This document shows, piece after piece, positions 31,293-51,792 of a stretch of DNA of 64,000 nt; the stretch's first letter is position 1, and every line of letters begins with the position of its first letter. The notes under the pieces are model-generated. The model saw only the letters and a program-made list of their open reading frames with translations. It had not been told where the DNA came from and did no database searches. Source of the DNA: Candidatus Aminicenantes bacterium UBA1061 (lineage in GTDB: Bacteria; Acidobacteriota; Aminicenantia; Aminicenantales; Saccharicenantaceae). Both the position numbers and the translations under genes were made by a program. The stretch lies in contig DCDG01000037.1 in NCBI GenBank assembly GCA_002316315.1, positions 21,967-85,966 of the forward strand, in the 5' to 3' direction.

Positions 31293-34200
31293 GTGGGGTT
31301 TCGGTTTTGGCCGTCGGCATTGAAAGGTCGAGAGCATCGACTGCTCCAACTGGCTATTGTCTTAGGCTGTCTGTCTATCATCCTGGTCTTAAGCTCATTT
31401 TTTTGGTTTAATCAACAGCCATCAAGCTCAGAGAAGGCTATTCCATCCAATTTAAACCAGGCCCGCCGTGAAATTCATCACGATTTTTCGCGGCTTCTTG
31501 AACTCTTGCAAAAAAGGCAAATTCAGCTTAGCGCTCGTACTCTGCCCGAAGACTTATGGACGAGATTTGAATTCTTCAAAAGAAGTGATCTAAATCCTGC
31601 TCTGGAGGGTGTGGCGAGTTTAGACGAGAAACTAAATCTCGAGGTCTGGTATGGAAATGTTGCCGATCTAAAAACCTCATTGCCCGATCTTGAAAAATAT
31701 TTAACAGATATTCTGGCTGGAAGTTTTGTTATTCAGGATAGGGCTTCAACTTATCTGGTAAGTCTAAAGCCTGTTGCTCAAAATAGTTATCTGGCCATTT
31801 TTGAGCTGCTGGCCTTTCAGCCTCAATTTCAGTCAACCTATTTGCATCAGTACATAAGGCTAAGGTCAATAAGCAAGACTGGTGCTGATATCGATTTCTG
31901 GGAATATTCTCATGAGACAGAAGCTCTTGACCGACTGTTTGAACGAAATCAAGATGCCTATTTGAGCCAGCAAAGGGAAGAACAGGAGAGCCGGACACTT
32001 TATTTCCCCCTAAGAAATGAGAAAAGTAAAATTTTAGCAACTGTGACTTTAAATTCTTTTCGCCTCGAAGGCCAAAAGCTAACTCTAAACCAGTTGGTCA
32101 GACTTCTGACCATAATTCTGGCTATCTTAGCTCTAACTTTCCTTTTATTCTGGCTTGGTCACGATAAACCCAGATCTTTATGGGCCTCAAAACTGGCTGA
32201 CGGATTGCTGGCCTCGGTGGCACTTCTAGCTATAAGATATCTGCTGGCCATACTGGCTGAACTCAGACCTTTTGTTTACTGGCCAGTTTTTTCTCCCCGT
32301 GAAGCAGGTTTCAAAACGATCGGGAATTTGACCAGCTCGCCAGGTGATATTTTTTTAACTTATCTTTTTATTTTCTTTCTGGTCGTCCTCAGCATTAAAC
32401 CATTAAAAGCCAGGCTAAGTCTCACCTCCCGGCATACCCGAACAGAGTCAGTCAATAATAAACATAAAATCCTGATAATTATGGCCGGAGCCTTTCTTTT
32501 TGTCCTGGGTTTCCAGGCCTTTATCTGGAGCCTAAAAAAAATAGTGGCCGGCACCAGCTTTAATTTACTGCAATATAATTTTAATTTAGCTTCCATTCTT
32601 ATTTATTTAAGTCTTTTCCTGGCCGGCCTGAGTTTTATCTTCTTTCCCCTGCTGATTTTAAGAAAGATATTTTCGACCGGCTGGGTCAGAACGATTTTCT
32701 GGGGAGCAAGTCTGGCTTCAATTCTGATTTTTCAGTTTATAGCCTGGTTGATTATAAAGCCTGCCGGGTTAAAATTAGCCTGGCAAATTCTTCTATTATT
32801 ATTGCTCTTCTTCCTCTCCGTTCTGTTCAAGCGTCGGGCCGGTTATATTCTTCTCAGTCTGTTCCTGATCGCCCTTGTTCAATTCACTTCTGTCCGCAGC
32901 TTAACGGCTACCAGGACTCGCCAGTTGACGGAAAATGTCCTTGTTCACCTGGTTTCTTCTCAGAAAACCTGGGCTGAAATGGCCCTCAAGCAATCACTCT
33001 TAGAGTTACAAAGGCAGATCCGAGACATTCATTCCTTTTTCCGTCATCCAGCTGATCGGGACTTTGCCCGTTCTCTCTGGAACAAGACCTTCCTGGCCAG
33101 GCTTAACTGGAATTCCTGCCTTTATCTCCAGTCGAACGACAGGAAGGTCTTATCATCTTTTTCTTTGAATATGCCAATTTTTGCAGAACAGACTGATGAC
33201 CTGGAAATGTCGGTTGAGCCGGTTTATACCGAGCAATATCTGGAAATCCTTGGCCAGGAGCGTCATTTTTTGATCGGTTACCAGGACTTTACTGCTGACA
33301 ATGGAGCCTCTGGCCGGCTGGTCATCTGGGTCAGCCTCGATCCCACTCTTCTACCTTTTATTAATACTGCCAACCCATATTTTGAATTGTTACGATTAAA
33401 TACCCTTCCTTCCCTTCAACACTTCCCGGTTTCTCTGGCCATCTTTGACTCTGAAGGTCAGCCACTTTTTAATCAGCCCCAGCCGGCCTTTTCTATTGAA
33501 CCGGAATTAAGACAAAAGATAAAAGAACAGCCATCGGGTTTATGGACAGTTCTCCATCTAAACAGCCAGGGTTATCGTGCCTATTGTCTGACTCTTGATG
33601 ATGGCCATTTCTACGCTTTTTATCAGCCGCCAGAATCAAGCCGCCGGCTGATCACTGGCTTTCTGAAGCTTTTCTTTCTCTTTATTATTTTCTCTCTATT
33701 GCTGCTCATCCCGCTAGCTGCCAGAAGGAGAGAATGGCGGCCGGACCTCCGGTCTTTTTCAGCCAGGGTTTATGTCGCTTTTTTTACCGTGGCCTTAGTG
33801 CCTCTTTTTTTCTTTATCTTTTTTACCCAGACCATGGTCGAAAGAATATTTGCCGACCGCTTTGTGAACGAAGCTACCAGCCGGGCTTATTTTGCCCGGA
33901 GTATCCTCTATGACTTTACCAGCCTGCAGGAGTCAGCTGAACAACAACCAGCAGGACTACCAGAAGACCTGGTCTTCTGGATCAGCGCTACCCTTAATAA
34001 TGATGTGAATCTCTATCGCCAGGGGTTATTTCTTTCTTCAAGTCGGCGGGAATTTTTTGAAACAGGAATTCTATCCGATCTAATTGATGGTGAGGTTTAC
34101 AGCCGAATTATTTATGGCCACCAGCCACTGGTCGTTAGCCGGAAATCTTTTGGCCAGTTTTCATATCAGACCCTGACCATTCCCTATAACTATCAGCAGG

Positions 34201-35198
34201 ATGTTTATCTTTTAAGCCTGCCTTTTCCTTTTGAAAGGCAGGAAATTTCTAAAGCCACGGGCGAGTTGCTGGAATTTTTTATCTTTTCATCGATATTTTT
34301 TATCGGCCTGATTGCTTTCTTTGCCAGTACGATCAAAAGGATGATTATTATCCCGATCAATAAGCTCATCCGGGCCACACAGGAGGTTGGATTGGGCAAC
34401 CTGGATGTGAAAGTGGATCACCAGGCTCAGGATGAACTGAAGGGCCTGATTGATGGCTTTAACACCATGGTTGAAAACCTGAAAGGACATGAAAAAGAAC
34501 TGGCTGAGCTCAGTCAGAAAGTAGCCTGGGCAGAAATGGCTAGAAGAGTAGCTCATGAAATAAAAAATCCTCTGACCCCCATCCAGCTCTCAGCTGAGCA
34601 TATTCTTAAAGTTCATGAAGATCAGCATCCTGAGTTTGATCGTATCCTCAGAGAATCAATATCCTATATAATTTCAGAGGTAGAGAATCTAAGGAGAATA
34701 GCTCAGGAATTTATGACTGTCGCCCGGGAATCTGATACACACCTCGAAAAGTTTGACCTGGCCAATCTCGTTGAGGAATTAGTTGAACCTTATCAAAGTA
34801 CCCTCGAAGGCCGGATACCTATTACTCTTAAGAAGTCTGGCGATGATTTTATCTTAAATGGTGATCGGGAAAAAGTGAAGGTTGCTATCCGCAATTTGCT
34901 AATTAATTCCATTGAAGCCATCAAGGGAAAAGGGCAGATTGAGTTTATTCTCAAATCATCTCCCGAAGCAATCAGACTGGAAATCAAGGACAGCGGGGCA
35001 GGAATTCCAGCCGATATTGCCGAGCACATTTTTGAACCATATTTTTCAACTAAAGAAAAGGGCACCGGCCTTGGCCTGGCTATCTGTAAAAGAATTGTAG
35101 AAGAGAATGGTGGCTCAATTAAAATAGAAAGCAGGTCGGGCCAGGGAACAACGGTGATTATGGCTTTCCTTAGGGTAGCTGATAATCAGGCCGGCTGA
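31293..35198 (+). CDS. Large multi-TM sensor histidine kinase (extracytoplasmic sensor domains, HAMP, HisKA, HATPase_c)
   Basis: 1301 aa. N-terminal TM; about 240-aa periplasmic segment; a block of about 8 TM helices; a second extramembrane segment; further TMs; HAMP; H-box VAHEIKNPLTPI (NtrY/AtoS-type); and G1/G2 boxes (DSGAGI, GTGLGLAI). Confidence 0.8.
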   Translation: MGFRFWPSALKGREHRLLQLAIVLGCLSIILVLSSFFWFNQQPSSSEKAIPSNLNQARREIHHDFSRLLELLQKRQIQLSARTLPEDLWTRFEFFKRSDLNPALEGVASLDEKLNLEVWYGNVADLKTSLPDLEKYLTDILAGSFVIQDRASTYLVSLKPVAQNSYLAIFELLAFQPQFQSTYLHQYIRLRSISKTGADIDFWEYSHETEALDRLFERNQDAYLSQQREEQESRTLYFPLRNEKSKILATVTLNSFRLEGQKLTLNQLVRLLTIILAILALTFLLFWLGHDKPRSLWASKLADGLLASVALLAIRYLLAILAELRPFVYWPVFSPREAGFKTIGNLTSSPGDIFLTYLFIFFLVVLSIKPLKARLSLTSRHTRTESVNNKHKILIIMAGAFLFVLGFQAFIWSLKKIVAGTSFNLLQYNFNLASILIYLSLFLAGLSFIFFPLLILRKIFSTGWVRTIFWGASLASILIFQFIAWLIIKPAGLKLAWQILLLLLLFFLSVLFKRRAGYILLSLFLIALVQFTSVRSLTATRTRQLTENVLVHLVSSQKTWAEMALKQSLLELQRQIRDIHSFFRHPADRDFARSLWNKTFLARLNWNSCLYLQSNDRKVLSSFSLNMPIFAEQTDDLEMSVEPVYTEQYLEILGQERHFLIGYQDFTADNGASGRLVIWVSLDPTLLPFINTANPYFELLRLNTLPSLQHFPVSLAIFDSEGQPLFNQPQPAFSIEPELRQKIKEQPSGLWTVLHLNSQGYRAYCLTLDDGHFYAFYQPPESSRRLITGFLKLFFLFIIFSLLLLIPLAARRREWRPDLRSFSARVYVAFFTVALVPLFFFIFFTQTMVERIFADRFVNEATSRAYFARSILYDFTSLQESAEQQPAGLPEDLVFWISATLNNDVNLYRQGLFLSSSRREFFETGILSDLIDGEVYSRIIYGHQPLVVSRKSFGQFSYQTLTIPYNYQQDVYLLSLPFPFERQEISKATGELLEFFIFSSIFFIGLIAFFASTIKRMIIIPINKLIRATQEVGLGNLDVKVDHQAQDELKGLIDGFNTMVENLKGHEKELAELSQKVAWAEMARRVAHEIKNPLTPIQLSAEHILKVHEDQHPEFDRILRESISYIISEVENLRRIAQEFMTVARESDTHLEKFDLANLVEELVEPYQSTLEGRIPITLKKSGDDFILNGDREKVKVAIRNLLINSIEAIKGKGQIEFILKSSPEAIRLEIKDSGAGIPADIAEHIFEPYFSTKEKGTGLGLAICKRIVEENGGSIKIESRSGQGTTVIMAFLRVADNQAG

Positions 35199-44751: not shown

Positions 44752-45972
44752 ATGACAGTTGTAATTGCTCTATGTCTTCTACTGCTTATTGCTTACCTTT
44801 TTGAGTTTTACTCAGAAAAGATAAATGTACCGACAGTTATGATCTTACTTCTGGTCGGTTTTCTTCTGAGAGAAATAATTACTTATTTCAAAATCCCCTT
44901 CCCGGATTTATTTTTCTTATTGCCAGCCCTTGGCAATCTTGGCTTGCTGTTGATTGTTCTGGAAGCTACCCTGAGCATTAAATTAAACAGAGAGCATGGG
45001 AAACTGCTTCTTCAGACTCTGGGCCTGGCCCTGGCCAGTATTATTATCCTGTCATTTCTGCTGGCTCTGGCTCTCAGGTCAACCCATCCTGAAGTCAGCT
45101 TCAGAGAACTTCTTCTGATGGCCGCAGTCTTTGCTGGCAGTAGCAGTGCTGTGGCTATCTCCAGTTCAAAACATTTGCCCACCGCCAGCAGGAATTTCGT
45201 TGTTTATGAAAGCAGCTTTTCTGATATCCTCAGCATCATGTTTTTTAATTTTCTTTTATGGAATCAAACTCTTGGTGGAAATATATTTTTTATCGCTCTG
45301 TCTCAATTAATTATAACGGTTATCATTTCTGCTGTCTCCATCTATTTTTTATTTTTTCTCATACAAAGAATTGAACATGAGATTAAATTTATTCCAATTA
45401 TCCTCCTGGTAATTTTGATCTATTCAGTTTCAGAAATTATGCATCTGCCAGGCCTTATTTTTATCTTATTTTTTGGTTTGTTTTTAAATAATTATGACAG
45501 GGTACAGTCACTTCCCTGGCTGAAAAAAATGTTTATCAAGGAAAATCCTGGGGAAGTAACCAGATTTAAGGATCTGGTAGTTGAGTTTACTTTCCTTATC
45601 AAATCGATCTTTTTCCTTGTTTTTGGTTTTGCTGTCAGTAGGCGCGAAGTGCTGAATCTCCCCGATCTTTTTAAAGCTCTGGTTATAGTGGCCGTTATTT
45701 TTGGACTTAGATGGCTATTATTGAAGTTGATGAGAATCGAGCTGGACCGGGTCTTATACTTTGCACCGCGTGGCCTGATTACCATTCTTTTATTTGTCAC
45801 CCTTCAAGAAAAGGGCCTTGCTCCTTTTCTCTCCAGGGGAATGGTCTTCCAGGTAGTTTTTCTGTCGTGTCTGGTGATGGTCATAGGTAACCTGGCAGGG
45901 AAAAAGCAGGAAGAAAAAATCGAAGCCCGGACGGTCGAAAACCCATCAGGTAGCGTGGAAGAGTTCGAGTAA
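44752..45972 (+). CDS. Cation:proton antiporter-like polytopic membrane protein
   Basis: 406 aa with about 11 TM helices. The resemblance to Na+/H+ exchanger-type proteins is weak, and the family call is tentative. Confidence 0.35.
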   Translation: MTVVIALCLLLLIAYLFEFYSEKINVPTVMILLLVGFLLREIITYFKIPFPDLFFLLPALGNLGLLLIVLEATLSIKLNREHGKLLLQTLGLALASIIILSFLLALALRSTHPEVSFRELLLMAAVFAGSSSAVAISSSKHLPTASRNFVVYESSFSDILSIMFFNFLLWNQTLGGNIFFIALSQLIITVIISAVSIYFLFFLIQRIEHEIKFIPIILLVILIYSVSEIMHLPGLIFILFFGLFLNNYDRVQSLPWLKKMFIKENPGEVTRFKDLVVEFTFLIKSIFFLVFGFAVSRREVLNLPDLFKALVIVAVIFGLRWLLLKLMRIELDRVLYFAPRGLITILLFVTLQEKGLAPFLSRGMVFQVVFLSCLVMVIGNLAGKKQEEKIEARTVENPSGSVEEFE

Positions 45973-47667
45973 AGCTGGCTCCGGGTTATCCTCATACAAT
46001 ATTTGATTCTTTTCATAGAAAAAGTAGCGGTGATAAAGCCAGAGGCCGGCCATAATAAAAATGATAACCCCATAAAAACCAACCAATCTGGAAGGCCTGG
46101 CCAGAAAATAGGGTTCGATCCAGCGCGGTATAAAGATATAACCCAGAAATAACAGGACATAAACCAGCCAGAAGATATAGAGCTTACTTTTCCCGGGAAG
46201 ATAAGAACAGGCAAAAGGAAATTTCCGGTGCTGAAAAAACAGGGCTTCCACCAGCAAAACAGCCAGAGCCAGGTCATAAAGACAATGAATACCAGCAGTG
46301 GTCCAGTTCCAGATAAAACCATAAAAAACAAAAAGCAGGAGATAGAGCGGAATAAGGGCAAAAAAGAAAATGCTTTTCCGCAGAGCTGAAAAATAAGACC
46401 AGCACCGCGGACTTTCCGCTATTTTAAAAATCCAGTTAGCTTCCAGGTTGAGCGGGATATTAGTGGCATCTCTTATTCCCAGAGCCAGAAAGAAGCTCAG
46501 AACCAGCGGTAAGGAAAGCATATTACCAGATTGAGCTTTCCAGAAAAATTTACCAGTCGAGACAAACATAATAAGGCTCACCCCAAAACCAATCCCTAAA
46601 TAAGACAGAACCCTGGTCCGGTGAAGACGGCTGCGGCTCAGGGCACTGCCATAAAACCAGAAAACGGCCCTTTCTGTCGGTTGTCTTAAAATCGTCAGAT
46701 TCAAGACGGGTTCAGCCAGCCTCCGTAAAATTGACGGCCGGTAATGTTTGGCTCCTTCCGGTGATATTTTTTTGAGATACCGGTTGTATGAAATTAGAGT
46801 AATTAGAAAGAAAGCAGCCACAGCTATGACCAGAGCTACAATTGCTCTAAAAGCCAGCTGCCGGAAAAAGGGCTGCCGGTTTCCCTGTAAAACCTCATAG
46901 AGTCCGGTAAACCAGAGCGGGGGGAAATTCATCATAAGGGAAGTTGGACTCCCCTGAAGGGCTTTGAAGCTTTCAAACTGCTTTTGAATAAAATGCGTAT
47001 CAATCAGGAAAAAATAAAGAACAAAAATATGAGCAACGATGAGACCAAAGCGCAATAGATCTGAAATCCGTTGAAAGATTTTTCCCCGAAGAAGGATATT
47101 GAAAAAACCAACAATAAAACCGAGAGCAAAGAATATAAAGGCCCCGGCCAGGAACATAACCAGAAGATGAGTCAGGAAAAGAAGAAAAGCTGAAAAAAGG
47201 CCGTAGTATCTTGCCTGGCCCAAAAATATGGCAAAAACAATTGACGACAGAGAGTTAATACCAATAGCAAATAGCCCGACAAACATCACCAGGCTGGCAA
47301 ACTTGGCCGAAAAAACAGTCAGCGGCTTCAAGGGCAGGGGCATCAGATTCAAAAAATCCTGCCGGTCAAGAAAAATTACATCCCAGACAAAGATGGTGAC
47401 GAGCCCGAGCAGCAGCATGCTCAGGGTAGTCATTTCGCAAATTTCAAGCCAGGCCTCGGGTTTCTCTGGCAAGATAAGATACGGGAAAAGAAGGTAATCG
47501 GCGACCGAGGCCGGAAAAATCGCCAGAAGAGCTATAATGCTCACCACCTTGCCAGTCATCTGCTCTTCAAAAAAGACCGTTTCATTTAGAAAAAGGTGCT
47601 GGAAGAAATGACGCGTTAAGACTACAAATGATCTCTCTTTGAGCTGAAGTTTTTTAAAGCCGTCCAT
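45946..47667 (-). CDS. Large ABC-2-type transporter permease (about 12 TM)
   Basis: 573-aa highly hydrophobic protein 27 bp downstream of, and co-oriented with, an ABC ATPase. Confidence 0.5.
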   Translation of the reverse strand: MDGFKKLQLKERSFVVLTRHFFQHLFLNETVFFEEQMTGKVVSIIALLAIFPASVADYLLFPYLILPEKPEAWLEICEMTTLSMLLLGLVTIFVWDVIFLDRQDFLNLMPLPLKPLTVFSAKFASLVMFVGLFAIGINSLSSIVFAIFLGQARYYGLFSAFLLFLTHLLVMFLAGAFIFFALGFIVGFFNILLRGKIFQRISDLLRFGLIVAHIFVLYFFLIDTHFIQKQFESFKALQGSPTSLMMNFPPLWFTGLYEVLQGNRQPFFRQLAFRAIVALVIAVAAFFLITLISYNRYLKKISPEGAKHYRPSILRRLAEPVLNLTILRQPTERAVFWFYGSALSRSRLHRTRVLSYLGIGFGVSLIMFVSTGKFFWKAQSGNMLSLPLVLSFFLALGIRDATNIPLNLEANWIFKIAESPRCWSYFSALRKSIFFFALIPLYLLLFVFYGFIWNWTTAGIHCLYDLALAVLLVEALFFQHRKFPFACSYLPGKSKLYIFWLVYVLLFLGYIFIPRWIEPYFLARPSRLVGFYGVIIFIMAGLWLYHRYFFYEKNQILYEDNPEPALLELFHAT

Positions 47668-47693: not shown

Positions 47694-48464
47694 TCAGCCG
47701 TTTTTCTTCATTAAAGAAAGTAATTCTGAAGCCGCTGCCTCCGGGTCTTCCTGAACAACCAGCTGACCGAAAATTTCTTCAAGCGATGGGACTTTCATTA
47801 ACTGACGCAGATTCTCGACCGAATCATCTGCCCTGACCTTCCCCTGATAAAGAATCAACACCCGGCTGGCCACTTTCTCGACAATGTCCAGAAGATGAGA
47901 AGAATAAATGACAAGGTGGCCTTCAGACGCCAGCCGCCTGACCAGTTTTTCAATAATGAGAATAGTGGAAACATCCAGCCCCGACAATGGCTCGTCAAGG
48001 AGAAGAATCTCCGGGTCATGAAGGAGAGCAGCTGTTATTAAAACTTTCTGCGTCATGCCTTTGGAAAAAGAAGCAATCTCGGAATACAGATCACCGGCCA
48101 GGTCAAAGACCTCCATAAAGCCTTTGATTTTGGCTTTAAGGACTGATTCTTTAAGCCCTCGCAGTCTGCCCACCATGAGGAGATAATCATAGGCGCTGAG
48201 ATGGGAATAAATGGCCGGCTCTTCCGGCACATAGCCCAGCCTTTGCTTGAACCAGACCAGATTCTTCCAGACATTCCGCCCGTCATAGAAAATTTCACCT
48301 TCTGTTGGCTCCAGCAGTCCGGCAATCATTTTGATGGTGGTGGACTTGCCGGCACCGTTTGGGCCGAGATAGCCGACCGACTCCCCCGGTTTGATGGTGA
48401 AACTCACCGCATCGACCACTTTTAAAAATTGATATTTTTTTGTTATCCCTTTTAGCTCTAACAT
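47694..48464 (-). CDS. ABC transporter ATP-binding protein (ABC-2 subfamily)
   Basis: Walker A GPNGAGKST. Signature LSGLDV-like motif. Walker B LLLDEP. Length 256 aa. Confidence 0.8.
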   Translation of the reverse strand: MLELKGITKKYQFLKVVDAVSFTIKPGESVGYLGPNGAGKSTTIKMIAGLLEPTEGEIFYDGRNVWKNLVWFKQRLGYVPEEPAIYSHLSAYDYLLMVGRLRGLKESVLKAKIKGFMEVFDLAGDLYSEIASFSKGMTQKVLITAALLHDPEILLLDEPLSGLDVSTILIIEKLVRRLASEGHLVIYSSHLLDIVEKVASRVLILYQGKVRADDSVENLRQLMKVPSLEEIFGQLVVQEDPEAAASELLSLMKKNG

Positions 48465-48936
48465 CTTAGACCAGGGTCAAATATATCACTTATGATTTTA
48501 TTCTGACAAGAAAATTATAGCGTTAAAATGCCTGGCGTGCTCAGAAAGGACCAACCAGCTTTACCCTCGCCCTCTGCAATAATATGTAAAGGCTATGGAT
48601 GATATATTTATTCACCGTTTTGCCGCTCAGTCCTGAGTCGGGGGTAAAGAGGTGGCCGGCTTCCTGGTAAAAAATTAAAGGCCACTTAAGATGATACCTA
48701 TGATTAATAGAACGGCAGGTCAGACAAAATCTTTCATCAATTGAGTGTTTTACGTTAAGGGTCAATTACTGTTCAATTTTTGGGGATATATAAACCTACA
48801 ATTATCGGCTCTGTCCTTTATTATATTTGCGGGTCCTTCGAAATAAAATTGGCGATCTGCAATCCCGACCACTCAGGCCCACAAAACTCTCCCTTCAAGC
48901 CAATCCGCCTCTTAGCTTTAAGCTATTGGTTCAGGG

Positions 48937-50115
48937 TTAGAAGCCGGTGATTAAACCCAGCCCAAGCCGCAGGTGTTTGGGTAAATCACTTTTAAAAACA
49001 TAGGTGGCCTCAATTGTTGCCCGGACATTTCTTCGCAAAAGGTAACCATAATGAAGACCGGCCGAAGTGTAATCCAGGTCGGGCTGATCTGAATCCACCC
49101 AGTTAAAAAGGGCCACCGTATACCAGCGCGAATCATCGCCATGAGGAAAATAAAGTAGCTCAGCGAATCCACCCTGGGTTTGTATTTTCTCCGCCCCGAC
49201 TATTAAAAAGTAAGGGTTCTTGTCACGCCTGGTCAAATACTGGACATTAAGCTCAAATTTCGGTTGAGACCAGGTCAGGTCACCACCGGCCATCCACAGG
49301 CTGTCATTGACATTGTCCTGCCTTTCTTTTCCCAGGTAGCCAAAGGCTCCTGCTCTGAATTCCGGAGTGAAATCCTGCGAAACCCGCAGCAATAAATTCT
49401 TATATTTATCAGCATCAAATGTTTCAAAATCGTCAACTGGATCGAGGCCCATCCCATTAACGATCTCCAGAGTCAGGTCAGTACCGGTAGGCAGCCCGTA
49501 GGTCAGCATCACCCCCCGATCATAAGTTAGATCAACCCTGGCCTGTCCGACTTTAACTCCATAAATTCTGTAATCTTCATAAGTCAGCCTTAATTCTCTT
49601 TTAAAAAGAGGATCTGAAACCTGAAATTGTCCAACATAGAGATCCAGGTTAGTTTTGAACAGATTGTTGAACATAATAAAAGCATCTTCCAGGCCAGCTA
49701 TTTCCCCTCCCTCAGTAAAGATAAAATATAAATAATAAGAGATGTGTTTGGAGATTTCTCCACCAGACATTAACTTGATAATAAATGGAGCTGAAAAATC
49801 AAACCGCTTGTTATGAGCATTGTTAAAGCTCAAAAAACCATCAAACCTGATGGCAATGGGCAATTCCCGCAAGAGTGAAAGCATGTCATCGCCGGTCTCA
49901 ATGTTATAGCGCGGTGTTTCTTTATCCTTAATCACATAGCCGTTATTGGCAAACTCATCACCATAGGGCTTGAGCCGCGGAAATGGATTATGACAAACCT
50001 TACAACTGATACTGTATTTGCGAGCAAAGGCCGGTATGGACCAGGCTTCGGAGGCCAGTAAAAATAGTAAGATCGTTGACAGAAGAAGAACTCCGCCATT
50101 TTTCCTCATTGTCAT
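48937..50115 (-). CDS. Cyc2-like fused monoheme cytochrome c / outer-membrane beta-barrel porin (putative)
   Basis: Signal peptide (…LLASEAWS). Immediately after it, a single heme c motif in ...ARKYSISCKVCHNPFPRLKPYGDEFANNGY. The remaining about 340 aa are beta-strand-rich with alternating hydrophobics and a C-terminal ...GLGLITGF (terminal Phe), typical of OM beta-barrels. It lies 22 bp downstream of a multiheme cytochrome gene. Confidence 0.55.
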   Translation of the reverse strand: MTMRKNGGVLLLSTILLFLLASEAWSIPAFARKYSISCKVCHNPFPRLKPYGDEFANNGYVIKDKETPRYNIETGDDMLSLLRELPIAIRFDGFLSFNNAHNKRFDFSAPFIIKLMSGGEISKHISYYLYFIFTEGGEIAGLEDAFIMFNNLFKTNLDLYVGQFQVSDPLFKRELRLTYEDYRIYGVKVGQARVDLTYDRGVMLTYGLPTGTDLTLEIVNGMGLDPVDDFETFDADKYKNLLLRVSQDFTPEFRAGAFGYLGKERQDNVNDSLWMAGGDLTWSQPKFELNVQYLTRRDKNPYFLIVGAEKIQTQGGFAELLYFPHGDDSRWYTVALFNWVDSDQPDLDYTSAGLHYGYLLRRNVRATIEATYVFKSDLPKHLRLGLGLITGF

Positions 50116-50137
50116 TTTTACCTCCGCCAGAGATCAA

Positions 50138-51508
50138 TTAATCAATGACGTTAATGGTAGTTTGATGCTTATTAACTTCAATTACCTCCGTCTCATCAGC
50201 CGGGACACCGAGAAAATCAGCTACCGGTTTGACCAGCCGCTGATAATAAAGGGCTGCCCTAACTGTCAGCAGTCCAGCTGGAATGCTATCCGGCAGAACA
50301 AAAGTACAGGTTTCTATCCTGGTTTCCTTCGGGCCAATTCTATAATCAACACCCTGGCTCTTGGTGTTCCATTGCTGAATGGTCATCCGTCCTTGCGGAT
50401 CAAAATAAGGCATCCGGAAAATGCGGTCGCCGGCTGGCACGCCATCTCTCTGGACTCCCTTAAAGTTCTGGTCATTAAGGGCAATACCCATATCCTGATA
50501 AGCCAGCGTATCGGCGGCAATAGTGTATTCTTCTCCTTCGAATCCTTTTTTATCGACTGGCAGATGATAGACATTGCCTCTGGCATCAACCGCATCGACA
50601 TGCAGCCAGACAATTCTGTCTTCGACTGAACCGGTTGGAAACTTATGACCAGTCTTCTGGTTAAAAAGAACAATGGTGAATTTAACTTTGTCCCCGGGTA
50701 CCGCCTCATTGATATCAGGATGAATTCTTAGCTCAATTGTTCCCCTGACTTTACCCGGATCATGAGCACCATGAAAAAGATGCTGGCGAACATCAGGATA
50801 AGCATTGCCCATAGAAGCACTTTTGCCAGGGGCATAGGTCATATGACAATCGTGGCACTTTACTCCTTCCTGAGCATAAGGCCCATCTTTCCACTCCAGC
50901 TGAGTGGATTTAACCCAGACTCCATAAGGACTCTTTTCATTGTGACAGGTACCACAGAACTCCGCCCTGGACAGAAAATCAGATTTGACTAAATTATGTT
51001 CGGGAGAATTGTTATTCTGTCGCGGCCCATACTTATTCTTGCCTGGTTCGGAGATCCAGTTAAAATTAAACGGGGTGTCGCCAGCCATACCAGTTACGGT
51101 GTGGCAGACCTCGCAGGAAACCGATTCATTGGCTCTGGTACCTTTAGCCGGGACTGCCGGCGGAACATCACCAGCTAAAAAGGCCAGAGGCGTGTGACAG
51201 CCGTTACAACCGGCTTTAACACCGGCCACCACCGGATCTTTCTCAGCCTGGGGAACAGCCAGCTTGAAGTATTCGATTTCGTCCCAGTGATGGGTATAGG
51301 CCTGGGACATCATGGCCTGTTTCCACTGCTGATAGATGTCATTATGACATTGAATTCCGCAGAAAGCCGGAGTCTGATAGTCGCTGTATTTTTTTGAGCC
51401 GAGTGCTTCATCTCCAGCCTTTTGCAAGCCGTAGGAAGTTATTAAGCCGAGAGAAATAGCCAGAATGAGGGGCAAAACAACAGCCAGCCATCCGGAGAGT
51501 TGTTTCAT
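50138..51508 (-). CDS. Pentaheme c-type cytochrome, periplasmic/secreted
   Basis: N-terminal signal/anchor. Five CxxCH motifs (CGIQCH, CNGCH, CEVCH, CGTCH, CHDCH) lie in the first roughly 225 residues. The C-terminal 230 aa carry no heme motif. Confidence 0.8.
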   Translation of the reverse strand: MKQLSGWLAVVLPLILAISLGLITSYGLQKAGDEALGSKKYSDYQTPAFCGIQCHNDIYQQWKQAMMSQAYTHHWDEIEYFKLAVPQAEKDPVVAGVKAGCNGCHTPLAFLAGDVPPAVPAKGTRANESVSCEVCHTVTGMAGDTPFNFNWISEPGKNKYGPRQNNNSPEHNLVKSDFLSRAEFCGTCHNEKSPYGVWVKSTQLEWKDGPYAQEGVKCHDCHMTYAPGKSASMGNAYPDVRQHLFHGAHDPGKVRGTIELRIHPDINEAVPGDKVKFTIVLFNQKTGHKFPTGSVEDRIVWLHVDAVDARGNVYHLPVDKKGFEGEEYTIAADTLAYQDMGIALNDQNFKGVQRDGVPAGDRIFRMPYFDPQGRMTIQQWNTKSQGVDYRIGPKETRIETCTFVLPDSIPAGLLTVRAALYYQRLVKPVADFLGVPADETEVIEVNKHQTTINVID

Positions 51509-51792
51509 AAGACCCTCCTTTTTCTCCCTATTCCCTATATAGTTTATATGTTAAGTAAAATAAGGCCCAATGTCAAATTTTGAAGATTCAATTACTCCTG
51601 GACAGGGTTTTAAGGACTGAACCAGACACACCAGGTATTGACCCTGGAAATCAGGGCTGATTATATAAACTTCTACCAGCTATAAATATAAAATTCAGCA
51701 CCTGACCTGACTGGTTCAATCTCCCCTTTATATCCAGTATGTGCTGAATGAACCCCGCGCCAGCCCAGGTGGCCAGCTATCCTCCTACCTTT

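Follow-up and report, generated by a model that had tools for sequence, protein, structure and literature searches.

The question raised by this locus is whether two adjacent genes of an Aminicenantes genome provide an electron path across the outer membrane and, if so, in which direction electrons would travel along it. Both ORFs reported by a first-pass annotation of the window (i.e., the entire 64-kb stretch of DNA analyzed here) exist as claimed, co-oriented and 22 bp apart; the strand, which had been left unstated, is the minus strand. The 22 nt extend from the stop codon of the upstream cytochrome gene to the ATG of the Cyc2-like gene. The elements of this arrangement are as follows:

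50138..51508, minus strand: gene of the 456-aa pentaheme cytochrome (ORF)
48937..50115, minus strand: gene of the 392-aa Cyc2-type fused monoheme cytochrome-porin (ORF)
51548..51576, minus strand: promoter-like TTGACA-17-TAACAT, ~40 nt upstream of the cytochrome ATG (consensus scan, 10/12 matches)
51514..51520, minus strand: Shine-Dalgarno AAGGAGG of the cytochrome gene, 5 nt before its ATG (sequence)
50121..50125, minus strand: Shine-Dalgarno GGAGG of the Cyc2-like gene, 5 nt before its ATG, in the 22-nt spacer (sequence)

No terminator-like site was found between the two genes. The spacers on either side of the pair measured 472 nt (48465..48936) and 284 nt (51509..51792), in line with the 470 and 285 bp given at first. 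Rfam and similarity searches of these two spacers detected no conserved element apart from the last 75 nt before the cytochrome ATG, which share 81% identity with the closest relative (L006) and are the sole conserved intergenic stretch. The promoter-like site is weak evidence, since such sites are no commoner in this region than in shuffled sequence.

The N-terminal part of the 392-aa protein carries the features that relate it to Cyc2:

50038..50115, minus strand: signal peptide, aa 1-26 (MTMRK, hydrophobic core, AWS/IP; inspection)
49972..50034, minus strand: Cyc2 head motif PAFARKY-SIS-CKVCH-NPF-PRL, aa 28-48 (motif match)

This protein had been described as having a signal peptide and exactly one CxxCH within 15 residues of the cleavage site, and so it does: MTMRK is followed by a 16-residue uncharged core and AWS/IP (by inspection), and the only two Cys of the protein both belong to CKVCH (aa 38-42), 12 residues past the likely cleavage. 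The mature N-terminus aligns with the SEA/IPAFARQ position of Mariprofundus Cyc2. Keffer et al. (2021) list the Cyc2 head motifs as PXFAR[Q/K][T/Y], stated to be unique to Cyc2, CXXCH and PXL (PMC8406198). The first is matched by PAFARKY, which ends 3 residues before the first Cys, and the FAR-to-CXXCH spacing equals that of the Cyc2 PV-1 heme peptide QTGAACLSCHFQTFPALNAFGR and of the Mariprofundus Cyc2 P0271 (FARQT-GAA-C). The leading A of AXPXFAR is replaced here by S and is A in most homologs, and the CH-to-PXL gap is 3 residues (CH-NPF-PRL), one shorter than in Zetaproteobacterial Cyc2 (4 in Cyc2 PV-1, as in some family members). With its 392 aa, the protein also exceeds the minimal Cyc2 length of 365 aa; it thus has every published sequence motif and architectural feature of Cyc2 that we tested for, with heme attachment predicted.

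These features are conserved. Exactly one CXXCH is found in 120/120 closest homologs, at an identical position in 115 of them, and nearly all end in an aromatic residue. Among 47 full-length representatives a single N-terminal CXXCH is present in 46, the exception being P0253, which has none; P0253 aside, the full head motif persists in the examined full-length homologs down to 29% identity. Moreover, the two genes are the only CXXCH-containing ORFs of at least 60 aa in the window, which, along with the motif kept in all 120 homologs, argues that the pair is not a product of chance.

As a Cyc2 reference, we used a query rebuilt from the mass-spectrometry peptides of Cyc2 PV-1 (Keffer 2021, Table S1), which retrieved Mariprofundus Cyc2 orthologs rather than the exact PV-1 protein. 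Pairwise BLASTP of the 392-aa protein against P0271 gave an E value of 2e-6, restricted to 31 head residues (the similarity threshold in the pipeline of Keffer et al. is a blastp E <= 1e-5). Similarly, hhalign against Mariprofundus Cyc2 returned a probability of 97-99%, all of it from the head, and comparing the barrel profile alone with Zetaproteobacterial (Cluster 1) Cyc2 yielded no similarity (~1%). Because the barrel-only comparison finds nothing, the kinship to characterized Cyc2 rests on ~60 N-terminal residues and on the architecture; the Cyc2 architecture originally proposed is upheld, with homology to the characterized clade confined to this head. Judging from FeGenie results at DeMMO, the protein likely belongs to Cyc2 Cluster 3. 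It has no Pfam, NCBIfam or PDB sequence match, to a soluble family or otherwise. None of the findings that the first-pass annotation named as fatal to its assignment turned up.

The remainder of the protein, described earlier as beta-rich and ending in GLITGF, was examined in an AF2 model:

48940..49854, minus strand: predicted 16-strand beta-barrel, aa 88-392, with an aromatic C-terminal residue (AF2 model)
49561..49632, minus strand: predicted loop L3 between strands 5 and 6, aa 162-185, GQFQVSDPLFKRELRLTYEDYRIY (AF2 model, low confidence)

The C-terminus was confirmed, and the model, of moderate confidence (pLDDT 65), predicts a barrel but does not include the heme head; its nearest structural matches are 16-strand porins, and the barrel is OprP-like, in agreement with published Cyc2, whose 16-strand barrel resembles OprO/OprP. 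No part of the protein is better conserved than loop L3 (mean majority frequency of 0.90, versus 0.83 for the heme head, in 75 sequences from several phyla), which, by analogy with the topology of classical 16-strand porins, would be the pore-constricting loop. Whereas Cyc2 porins have been described as poorly conserved, the barrel and L3 of this family are unusually conserved, with 46-87% identity between phyla.

The 456-aa protein contains five heme sites:

51344..51361, minus strand: heme site 1, CGIQCH (CX3CH variant), aa 50-55 (motif and alignment)
51194..51208, minus strand: heme site 2, CNGCH, aa 101-105 (invariant alignment columns)
51101..51115, minus strand: heme site 3, CEVCH, aa 132-136 (motif and alignment)
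50942..50956, minus strand: heme site 4, CGTCH, aa 185-189 (motif and alignment)
50843..50857, minus strand: heme site 5, CHDCH, aa 218-222 (motif and alignment)

The label "pentaheme" therefore stands as to the number of sites, with the qualification that they comprise four CXXCH and one CX3CH, not five CXXCH. Site 1 is CX3CH in 118/120 close homologs and plain CXXCH in 17/73 homologs from other phyla, and it aligns with CANCH of the pentaheme cytochrome c552 of T. tepidum (PDB 5ze8). Since the variant is near-invariant in close homologs and is replaced by CXXCH elsewhere and in 5ze8, we regard it as a genuine fifth heme site.

Database comparisons placed this protein in a known superfamily. 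Its Pfam matches are Cytochrome_C554 and NNT, and it matches NCBIfam ExtKL (NF040886) weakly and partially (E 9.3e-11; 40.9 bits versus a cut-off of 250). PDB 5ze8 was detected with an E value of 1e-4 by single sequence and 7e-7 by profile, and was the top Foldseek match of the AF2 model (E 6e-9). As the model itself is poor (pLDDT 50), only this top match and the C-terminal Ig-like beta-sandwich, modeled at pLDDT 85-93, were used. In both proteins the five heme sites occupy the N-terminal half and the C-terminal half holds an Ig-like beta domain, in 456 versus 435 aa, and the sequence and fold matches are remote (~18% identity) but significant. The 456-aa protein is thus a remote relative of the ExtKL/T. 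tepidum c552 pentaheme (PHC) family, a superfamily that includes ExtKL, Gsu2801, T. tepidum c552 and the sPHC of cable bacteria (PMC11976967). ExtKL (MccSep) is a polysulfide reductase with a catalytic Sec/Cys and a heme-ligating Cys (bioRxiv 10.1101/2025.11.18.688581), and T. tepidum c552 has a low potential and is linked to sulfur metabolism.

In contrast to PHC/MccSep proteins, the first heme site here is CX3CH, and the MccSep Sec/Cys and heme-ligating Cys are missing, such that, together with an NF040886 score below 250, a MccSep/ExtKL (seleno)enzyme was rejected. The only non-heme Cys (C401) is present in 14/73 homologs from other phyla, 32 of these 73 have exactly 10 Cys (those of the heme sites alone), and no in-frame TGA occurs within the ORF. 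The absence of a conserved free Cys and the many homologs with exactly 10 Cys suggest a carrier and not an enzyme of the MccSep type. The family does have nine invariant non-motif His, including those of HLFHGAHD, a surplus of four over the number required by five bis-His hemes. The N-terminus of the 456-aa protein is long and hydrophobic, and was read by inspection as a signal peptide; it may be a membrane anchor instead of being cleaved. Homologs in other phyla possess ordinary cleavable signal peptides ending in ...A/Q(K)AGD. A quinol dehydrogenase of the NapC/NirT/CymA type (PF03264) scored 33.5, above the cut-off of 24.1, but covered only profile positions 33-77 of 174; it was rejected on this ground, for the cleavable signal peptides of the homologs, and because the protein, at 456 aa, is far longer than a tetraheme core of ~170-200 aa and has a beta domain in addition. 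Homologs of the cytochrome are 72-92% identical within Aminicenantes and 58-92% across phyla, an unusually high conservation.

Examining the genomic context in related genomes, as had been advised, revealed that the pairing is a conserved unit. Counted from Cyc2-like loci (80 species genomes, at least six named lineages), the cytochrome gene is directly upstream of the Cyc2-like gene in 84/85 loci, among them those of all 80 species genomes, and no other gene recurs in more than 13/86 loci. The carriers are Aminicenantes, Ignavibacteria/Melioribacter, Zixibacteria, Bacteroidales, Gemmatimonadales and others, mainly anaerobic organoheterotrophs and not lithoautotrophs; at least 504 species genomes have a member of the Cyc2-like clade. 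The two proteins co-vary in identity (r = 0.77), the cytochrome being the more conserved in 79/79 loci. The partner is kept by a Cyc2-like member of 40% identity and is absent from five members at 32-38%, i.e., the pairing is limited to one delimited Cyc2-like clade and the more distant Cyc2-like proteins (<=38% identity) are without it. Close to the pair, no gene for an inner-membrane quinol dehydrogenase or a terminal reductase or oxidase was found.

The first-pass annotation had considered the lineage to be one without a described module of this kind; this proved incorrect. Ca. Aminicenantes is named in the FeGenie paper (2020; PMC7005843) as one of the candidate taxa that have homologs of cyc2 or sulfocyanin, and two Aminicenantia MAGs were later reported with cyc2 by FeGenie, which was credited with the earlier identification (2021; PMC7914226). 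Cyc2 homologs have likewise been reported in Ignavibacteriaceae/Bacteroidetes (PMC6344600), and FeGenie iron-oxidation genes, mainly Cyc2 at those sites, in Ignavibacteriales and Zixibacteria (PMC8478452). In the open-access literature we found no description of Cyc2 paired with a pentaheme cytochrome or ExtK; the strict pairing across several phyla appears to be undescribed so far.

How, then, might this pair move electrons? We tentatively favor an explanation in which the two genes make up one operon-like cassette, encoding a short two-protein path across the outer membrane with outward flow; as a whole it is quite possible, if not yet probable. The partnership is suggested by the synteny, the co-varying identities and a 22-nt spacer with its own Shine-Dalgarno sequence and no terminator. 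The 392-aa protein would be exported and inserted in the outer membrane as a 16-strand barrel, with its monoheme Cyc2-type head at or within the periplasmic mouth, and the 456-aa protein, with five c-type hemes and the Ig-like domain, would be exported to the periplasm, locations that we infer from the N-termini. There the pentaheme cytochrome would interact physically with the Cyc2-type protein as the dedicated redox partner of its heme, joining it to the inner-membrane/periplasmic electron pool. The predicted barrel would be too narrow for a multiheme protein, so that an outside redox species would have to reach the pore, conceivably Fe in dissolved or chelated form or some other small molecule with redox activity, with the conserved charged loop L3 probably acting as a binding or constriction site. 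Fe(III) complexes or comparable acceptors would take up the electrons that the cell disposes of. We lean towards this direction because the hosts are mainly anaerobic heterotrophs and because, by analogy, the partner's relatives, at ~18% identity, are low-potential or reductive. The carriers also include MAGs assigned to Melioribacter roseus, a species that respires Fe(III) and whose outer-membrane Fe(III) reductase is as yet hypothetical (PMC3534657). Against outward flow stands the fact that each tested Cyc2 oxidizes Fe(II).

It is more doubtful whether the terminal reductase that is still missing from the outer membrane of anaerobic Ignavibacteria/Melioribacter, Zixibacteria, Bacteroidales and Aminicenantes, one acting on Fe(III) complexes, humics or other small acceptors, could be this cassette, i.e., a Cyc2 "in reverse" with a dedicated low-potential partner. 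Inward flow also strikes us as rather unlikely. In that case Fe(II) in solution would be oxidized by the Cyc2-type protein at its pore, in the manner of Acidithiobacillus, Leptospirillum and Mariprofundus, and the pentaheme cytochrome would replace Cyc1/c4 as the carrier to a nitrate, nitrite or oxygen reductase, or would serve Fe(II) detoxification. In keeping with this, all three biochemically tested Cyc2 proteins, which have the head motif in common with ours, oxidize Fe(II), none having been shown to run outward (PMC8406198); in Aminicenantes, Ignavibacteriales and Zixibacteria, FeGenie-based studies already count such genes towards iron oxidation; and Ignavibacteria-group carriers such as M. 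roseus possess oxygen reductases (PMC5492636). However, for divergent Cyc2 homologs Keffer et al. themselves regard the function as uncertain (PMC8406198), the carriers are mainly anaerobic heterotrophs and not lithoautotrophs, neither the window nor the 80 loci encode an oxidase or nitrate reductase, and the carriers in known chains of Fe(II) oxidation are high-potential mono- or diheme proteins, not a PHC-type pentaheme protein whose characterized relatives are low-potential.

A different role for the cytochrome, as a periplasmic enzyme reducing a small sulfur, nitrogen or peroxide substrate (cf. MccSep/ExtKL, NrfA), with the Cyc2-like protein as substrate channel or second electron entry, seems improbable. 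The nearest named family and the sulfur link of T. tepidum c552 would fit it, as would the cytochrome's conservation across phyla, its four surplus invariant His and the fact that OprP-like barrels are small-anion channels; yet the residues that define MccSep are absent, the ExtKL score is far below its cut-off, and a plain substrate channel needs no conserved, covalently bound heme with a Cyc2 motif. We give hardly any credence to the notion that the adjacency is meaningless, or that the 392-aa protein is simply a porin with a CXXCH to which no heme is attached: its lack of database matches and the general-porin likeness of the barrel alone agree with the latter, but the CXXCH and Cyc2 head are retained in distant full-length homologs, and synteny holds across phyla amid variable flanks. 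A chance CXXCH in a porin was likewise dismissed, the motif being conserved family-wide.

The cassette bears on the role of Cyc2 outside the classical iron oxidizers and on the identity of the M. roseus outer-membrane Fe(III) reductase. cyc2 is a widely used marker of microbial Fe(II) oxidation, e.g., in FeGenie; if the cassette is such a reverse-running reductase, a large share of the cyc2-based "iron-oxidation potential" in anoxic sediments and the subsurface would be mis-assigned. Since MAGs assigned to the cultured Melioribacter roseus and Ignavibacterium album carry the genes, the cassette is a concrete, testable unit.

Compared with known systems, the 392-aa protein shares with Cyc2 of A. 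ferrooxidans, Leptospirillum Cyt572 and Mariprofundus Cyc2 PV-1 (PMC8406198) the signal peptide and single N-terminal CXXCH, as well as PXFAR[K/Q][Y/T], PXL, a length of ~400 aa, a predicted 16-strand OprP-like barrel and an aromatic C-terminus. The Aminicenantes-type clade differs from classical Cyc2 in its obligately linked pentaheme partner gene and its anaerobic heterotroph hosts. For the PHC family, the pair adds a second genomic context, beside a Cyc2-type porin, to that of ExtKL in the Geobacter Ext cluster with its 21-strand ExtI porin. MtrAB/MtoAB/PioAB, Geobacter Omb-Oma-Omc and the Ext clusters likewise have a multiheme periplasmic cytochrome gene beside an outer-membrane barrel gene, and a trans-outer-membrane electron path is presumed for them as for the cassette. 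The early designation as a porin-cytochrome module is loose, as a barrel gene does adjoin a multiheme gene but would not form an MtrB/ExtI-type sheath: MtrB/PioB/ExtI-type barrels have 20-26 strands and sheathe a multiheme protein, whereas the 392-aa barrel has a predicted 16 strands and its own heme domain. An Mtr-type complex was rejected, as a 16-strand barrel cannot enclose the pentaheme partner. In the A. ferrooxidans rus operon and in Zetaproteobacterial cyc2/cyc1, the outer-membrane Cyc2 is encoded with a soluble periplasmic c-type cytochrome, Cyc1, which is of the diheme c4 type, has a high potential and receives the electrons. Set against this Cyc2-Cyc1 arrangement (cited source, PMC7029218), the partner here belongs to the pentaheme PHC type and has an Ig-like domain, and its gene comes first.

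Two co-oriented genes encode the only CXXCH-containing products among ORFs of at least 60 aa across the 64-kb window, with six heme sites between them (extents from ORF reading):

50138..51508, minus strand: ORF of the 456-aa pentaheme c-type cytochrome (upstream gene)
48937..50115, minus strand: ORF of the 392-aa candidate cytochrome-porin (downstream gene)

The 22 nt that separate them contain a GGAGG Shine-Dalgarno sequence and showed no terminator-like hairpin, and the sequence reading also places an AAGGAGG of its own before the 456-aa gene, with a promoter-like TTGACA-17-TAACAT ~40 nt 5' of its ATG. The two genes almost certainly form one co-transcribed unit. Neither flanking spacer (472 nt and 284 nt) matched Rfam, and both were unconserved among relatives except for the 75 nt 5' of the cytochrome ATG. 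The neighbouring genes are unrelated to the pair: on the downstream side they encode an ABC ATPase and a membrane protein, on the upstream side an SDH-type ClpP-like protease and a beta-propeller protein. Housekeeping and peptidase genes lie farther away.

The 392-aa protein had no match in sequence searches of Pfam, NCBIfam and the PDB; its family is large (>4,800 proteins in a word-indexed search; 1,681 clusters at 50% identity with E <= 1e-3, and 388 with E <= 1e-10, in an exhaustive search). Cyc2 proteins have been described as having a signal peptide, one CXXCH with a PXL downstream, no fewer than 365 aa, a 16-strand OprO/OprP-like porin and, upstream of the CXXCH, an AXPXFAR[Q/K][T/Y] motif called unique to Cyc2 (Keffer et al. 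2021, PMC8406198). The head of the 392-aa protein, i.e., its N-terminal heme-binding region, reads S-I-P-A-F-A-R-K-Y-SIS-CKVCH-NPF-PRL; the CKVCH (residues 38-42) holds the protein's only two cysteines and lies 12 residues past the probable signal-peptidase site AWS|IP, and the C-terminus reads ...GLITGF. The first-pass annotation had proposed a Cyc2-like fused cytochrome-porin and had asked that its CXXCH be conserved in orthologs, and both points were supported: a porin fold is predicted, and the Cyc2 head is kept in 120/120 close homologs and in 46 of 47 full-length representatives, at identities down to 29%.

As reference we used the Mariprofundus ferrooxydans Cyc2 orthologs, retrieved with mass-spectrometry peptides of Cyc2 PV-1, the biochemically characterised Mariprofundus protein (Table S1, PMC8406198). 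BLASTP aligned the head only (31 residues, 45% identity, E 2e-6), and profile-profile comparison returned a probability of 97.2% when the Aminicenantes alignment was used and 98.75% with the broad family alignment (E 1.5e-16, 342 columns). In control comparisons the head alone reached 99.3% (E 3.6e-20), whereas the barrel alone reached ~1%, indicating that the whole signal stems from the head; the latter result agrees with the published description of the Cyc2 porin part as highly divergent (PMC8406198). Assignment of the 392-aa protein as a Cyc2-type cytochrome-porin is supported, the basis for kinship being ~60 head residues and a shared architecture.

Its partner is a PHC-type pentaheme cytochrome, a family that joins a pentaheme domain to an Ig-like domain and groups ExtKL, Gsu2801 and c552 (cable-bacteria study, PMC11976967). 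In the 456-aa protein CXXCH occurs four times and CX3CH once (CGIQCH, residues 50-55). The fifth heme is supported in that CXXCH stands at the CX3CH position in 17 of 73 homologs and, likewise, in 5ze8, the PDB structure of T. tepidum pentaheme c552. This is the only solved relative by sequence (E 1e-4 with the single sequence, E 7e-7 with a profile) and the top Foldseek match (E 6e-9) of an AF2 model that is poor (pLDDT 50) and confident only in its C-terminal beta-sandwich. Pfam thresholds were passed for Cytochrome_C554 and, over a 45-position fragment only, for NapC/NirT; the NCBIfam ExtKL match was sub-threshold (E 9.3e-11, 40.9 bits vs 250). ExtKL (MccSep) is a polysulfide reductase requiring selenocysteine and a heme-ligating cysteine (2025 preprint, bioRxiv 10.1101/2025.11.18.688581), and since no free cysteine is conserved across the 456-aa protein and its homologs, a MccSep-type enzyme identity was ruled out for them. 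Homologs in other phyla have an ordinary cleavable signal peptide that ends just before (Q)KAGD and has no lipobox, so the 456-aa protein is most likely soluble in the periplasm; the rather long hydrophobic stretch at the N-terminus of the window's copy makes a membrane anchor conceivable there. Of note, HLFHGAHD (aa 243-250; 50763-50786, minus strand) is kept in 62 of the 73 homologs, and nine non-motif histidines are invariant, four beyond the need of five bis-His hemes; these spare residues could bind metal or mark a heme with open coordination.

The pair is a conserved cassette that is strictly co-inherited. Its closest homologs (88% and 92% identity for the two proteins) are in MAGs of Candidatus Saccharicenans, Aminicenantes and Acidobacteriota. 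When one genome per species was scanned, at least 504 genomes carried a relative of the 392-aa protein; the best 80 of these belong to Aminicenantes, Ignavibacteria/Melioribacteraceae, Zixibacteria, Bacteroidales, Kapabacteria, Gemmatimonadales and Glassbacteria and include MAGs classified as Melioribacter roseus and Ignavibacterium album. In each of the 80, and in 84 of 85 loci in total, the gene directly upstream has the same orientation and encodes a homolog of the 456-aa protein, while clustering of all flanking ORFs gave no other conserved neighbour (next most frequent, 13/86 loci). The cytochrome was more conserved than the porin in 79/79 loci (mean identity to the window proteins, 69% vs 53%), and the two identities co-varied (r = 0.77). 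This linkage has a boundary: the pentaheme partner is present for a Cyc2-like member at 40% identity (P0143) and absent for five at 32-38%. A rough NJ tree placed 20 of 21 linked sequences in one compact clade, distant from the Zetaproteobacterial Cluster 1; P0143, also linked, grouped with an unlinked member immediately outside that clade. One of the five partnerless members (P0162, 38% identity) directly follows a Ni_hydr_CYTB-type cytochrome b gene (L088 1431-3373), so the partner may differ from one Cyc2-like branch to another.

Within the linked clade, conservation peaks in the barrel:

49561-49632, minus strand: aa 162-185 of the 392-aa protein, GQFQVSDPLFKRELRLTYEDYRIY, the most conserved stretch, with many charged residues

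The most conserved 20 residues (162-181, GQFQVSDPLFKRELRLTYED) have a majority frequency of 0.90 vs 0.83 for the heme head and lie within the predicted loop joining strands 5 and 6, a stretch where AlphaFold2 confidence is low. By analogy with classical 16-strand porins, this loop would be L3, which constricts the pore.

We infer that, in line with the proposal made for Cyc2 (PMC8406198), the monoheme head lies where its own barrel opens to the periplasm, and that the pentaheme protein docks there, linking it to the electron pool of the periplasm or inner membrane. The redox species on the outside would have to come to the pore, since a barrel of 16 strands is too small to surround a multiheme protein. 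Our tentative preference is that electrons run outward: carriers of the cassette are for the most part anaerobic organoheterotrophs, M. roseus can respire Fe(III), with an outer-membrane reductase that is only hypothetical (PMC3534657), and characterised relatives of the pentaheme partner are low-potential or reductive (PMC11976967; bioRxiv 10.1101/2025.11.18.688581). Inward flow, in which the cassette oxidises Fe(II), would accord with all three tested Cyc2 proteins being Fe(II) oxidases (PMC8406198), and seems to us somewhat unlikely given the carriers and relatives just named. That the 456-aa protein is a periplasmic enzyme and the 392-aa protein its channel is quite improbable, and that two genes adjacent in 84 of 85 loci have no functional link is very improbable.

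The first-pass annotation had placed the module in a lineage where none had been described, a claim that earlier cyc2 reports overturn: the FeGenie paper counts Ca. Aminicenantes as one of the candidate taxa in which homologs of cyc2 or sulfocyanin occur (PMC7005843), and a later study reports cyc2 from two Aminicenantia MAGs, crediting FeGenie with the earlier identification (PMC7914226). Cyc2 homologs have also been reported in Ignavibacteriaceae and Bacteroidetes MAGs (PMC6344600), and Ignavibacteriales and Zixibacteria are reported to carry iron-oxidation genes called by FeGenie, which at the sites concerned are mainly Cyc2 (PMC8478452). In the open-access literature we found no description of the obligate pairing with a PHC-type pentaheme cytochrome, of its phylum-spanning distribution, or of the unusually conserved barrel and L3 loop, any of which may nonetheless have been described earlier. 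The cassette could alter how cyc2 matches from anoxic habitats are read, and species with cultured representatives open it to experiment.

Several features around the cassette were also recorded. The downstream spacer (48465-48936, 472 nt, 3' of the Cyc2-like gene) has no canonical terminator and no similarity among related loci, its sole content being a probably spurious 74-aa TTG ORF. Beyond it, the ABC ATPase (47694-48464, minus strand) is paired with a 573-aa polytopic membrane protein without a Pfam match (45946-47667, minus strand), probably as an uncharacterised ABC-2-type exporter; elsewhere this pair is not kept beside the cassette. A 1301-aa sensor histidine kinase (31293-35198, plus strand; HAMP, HisKA, HATPase_c) matches no Pfam family over its first ~1000 residues. 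In 6 of 86 loci, the window not among them, genes for an ECF sigma factor, a zf-HC2 anti-sigma factor and a 255-aa protein precede the cassette on the same strand, as in these loci of other Aminicenantes:

L001, 4658-6500: three-gene set before the cassette
L002, 1991-3833: three-gene set before the cassette
L003, 2626-4435: three-gene set before the cassette
L004, 27-1306: three-gene set before the cassette

The 255-aa protein has a weak Secretin_N/STN-like match, and the FecIR-like layout of the set hints at envelope- or iron-responsive control.
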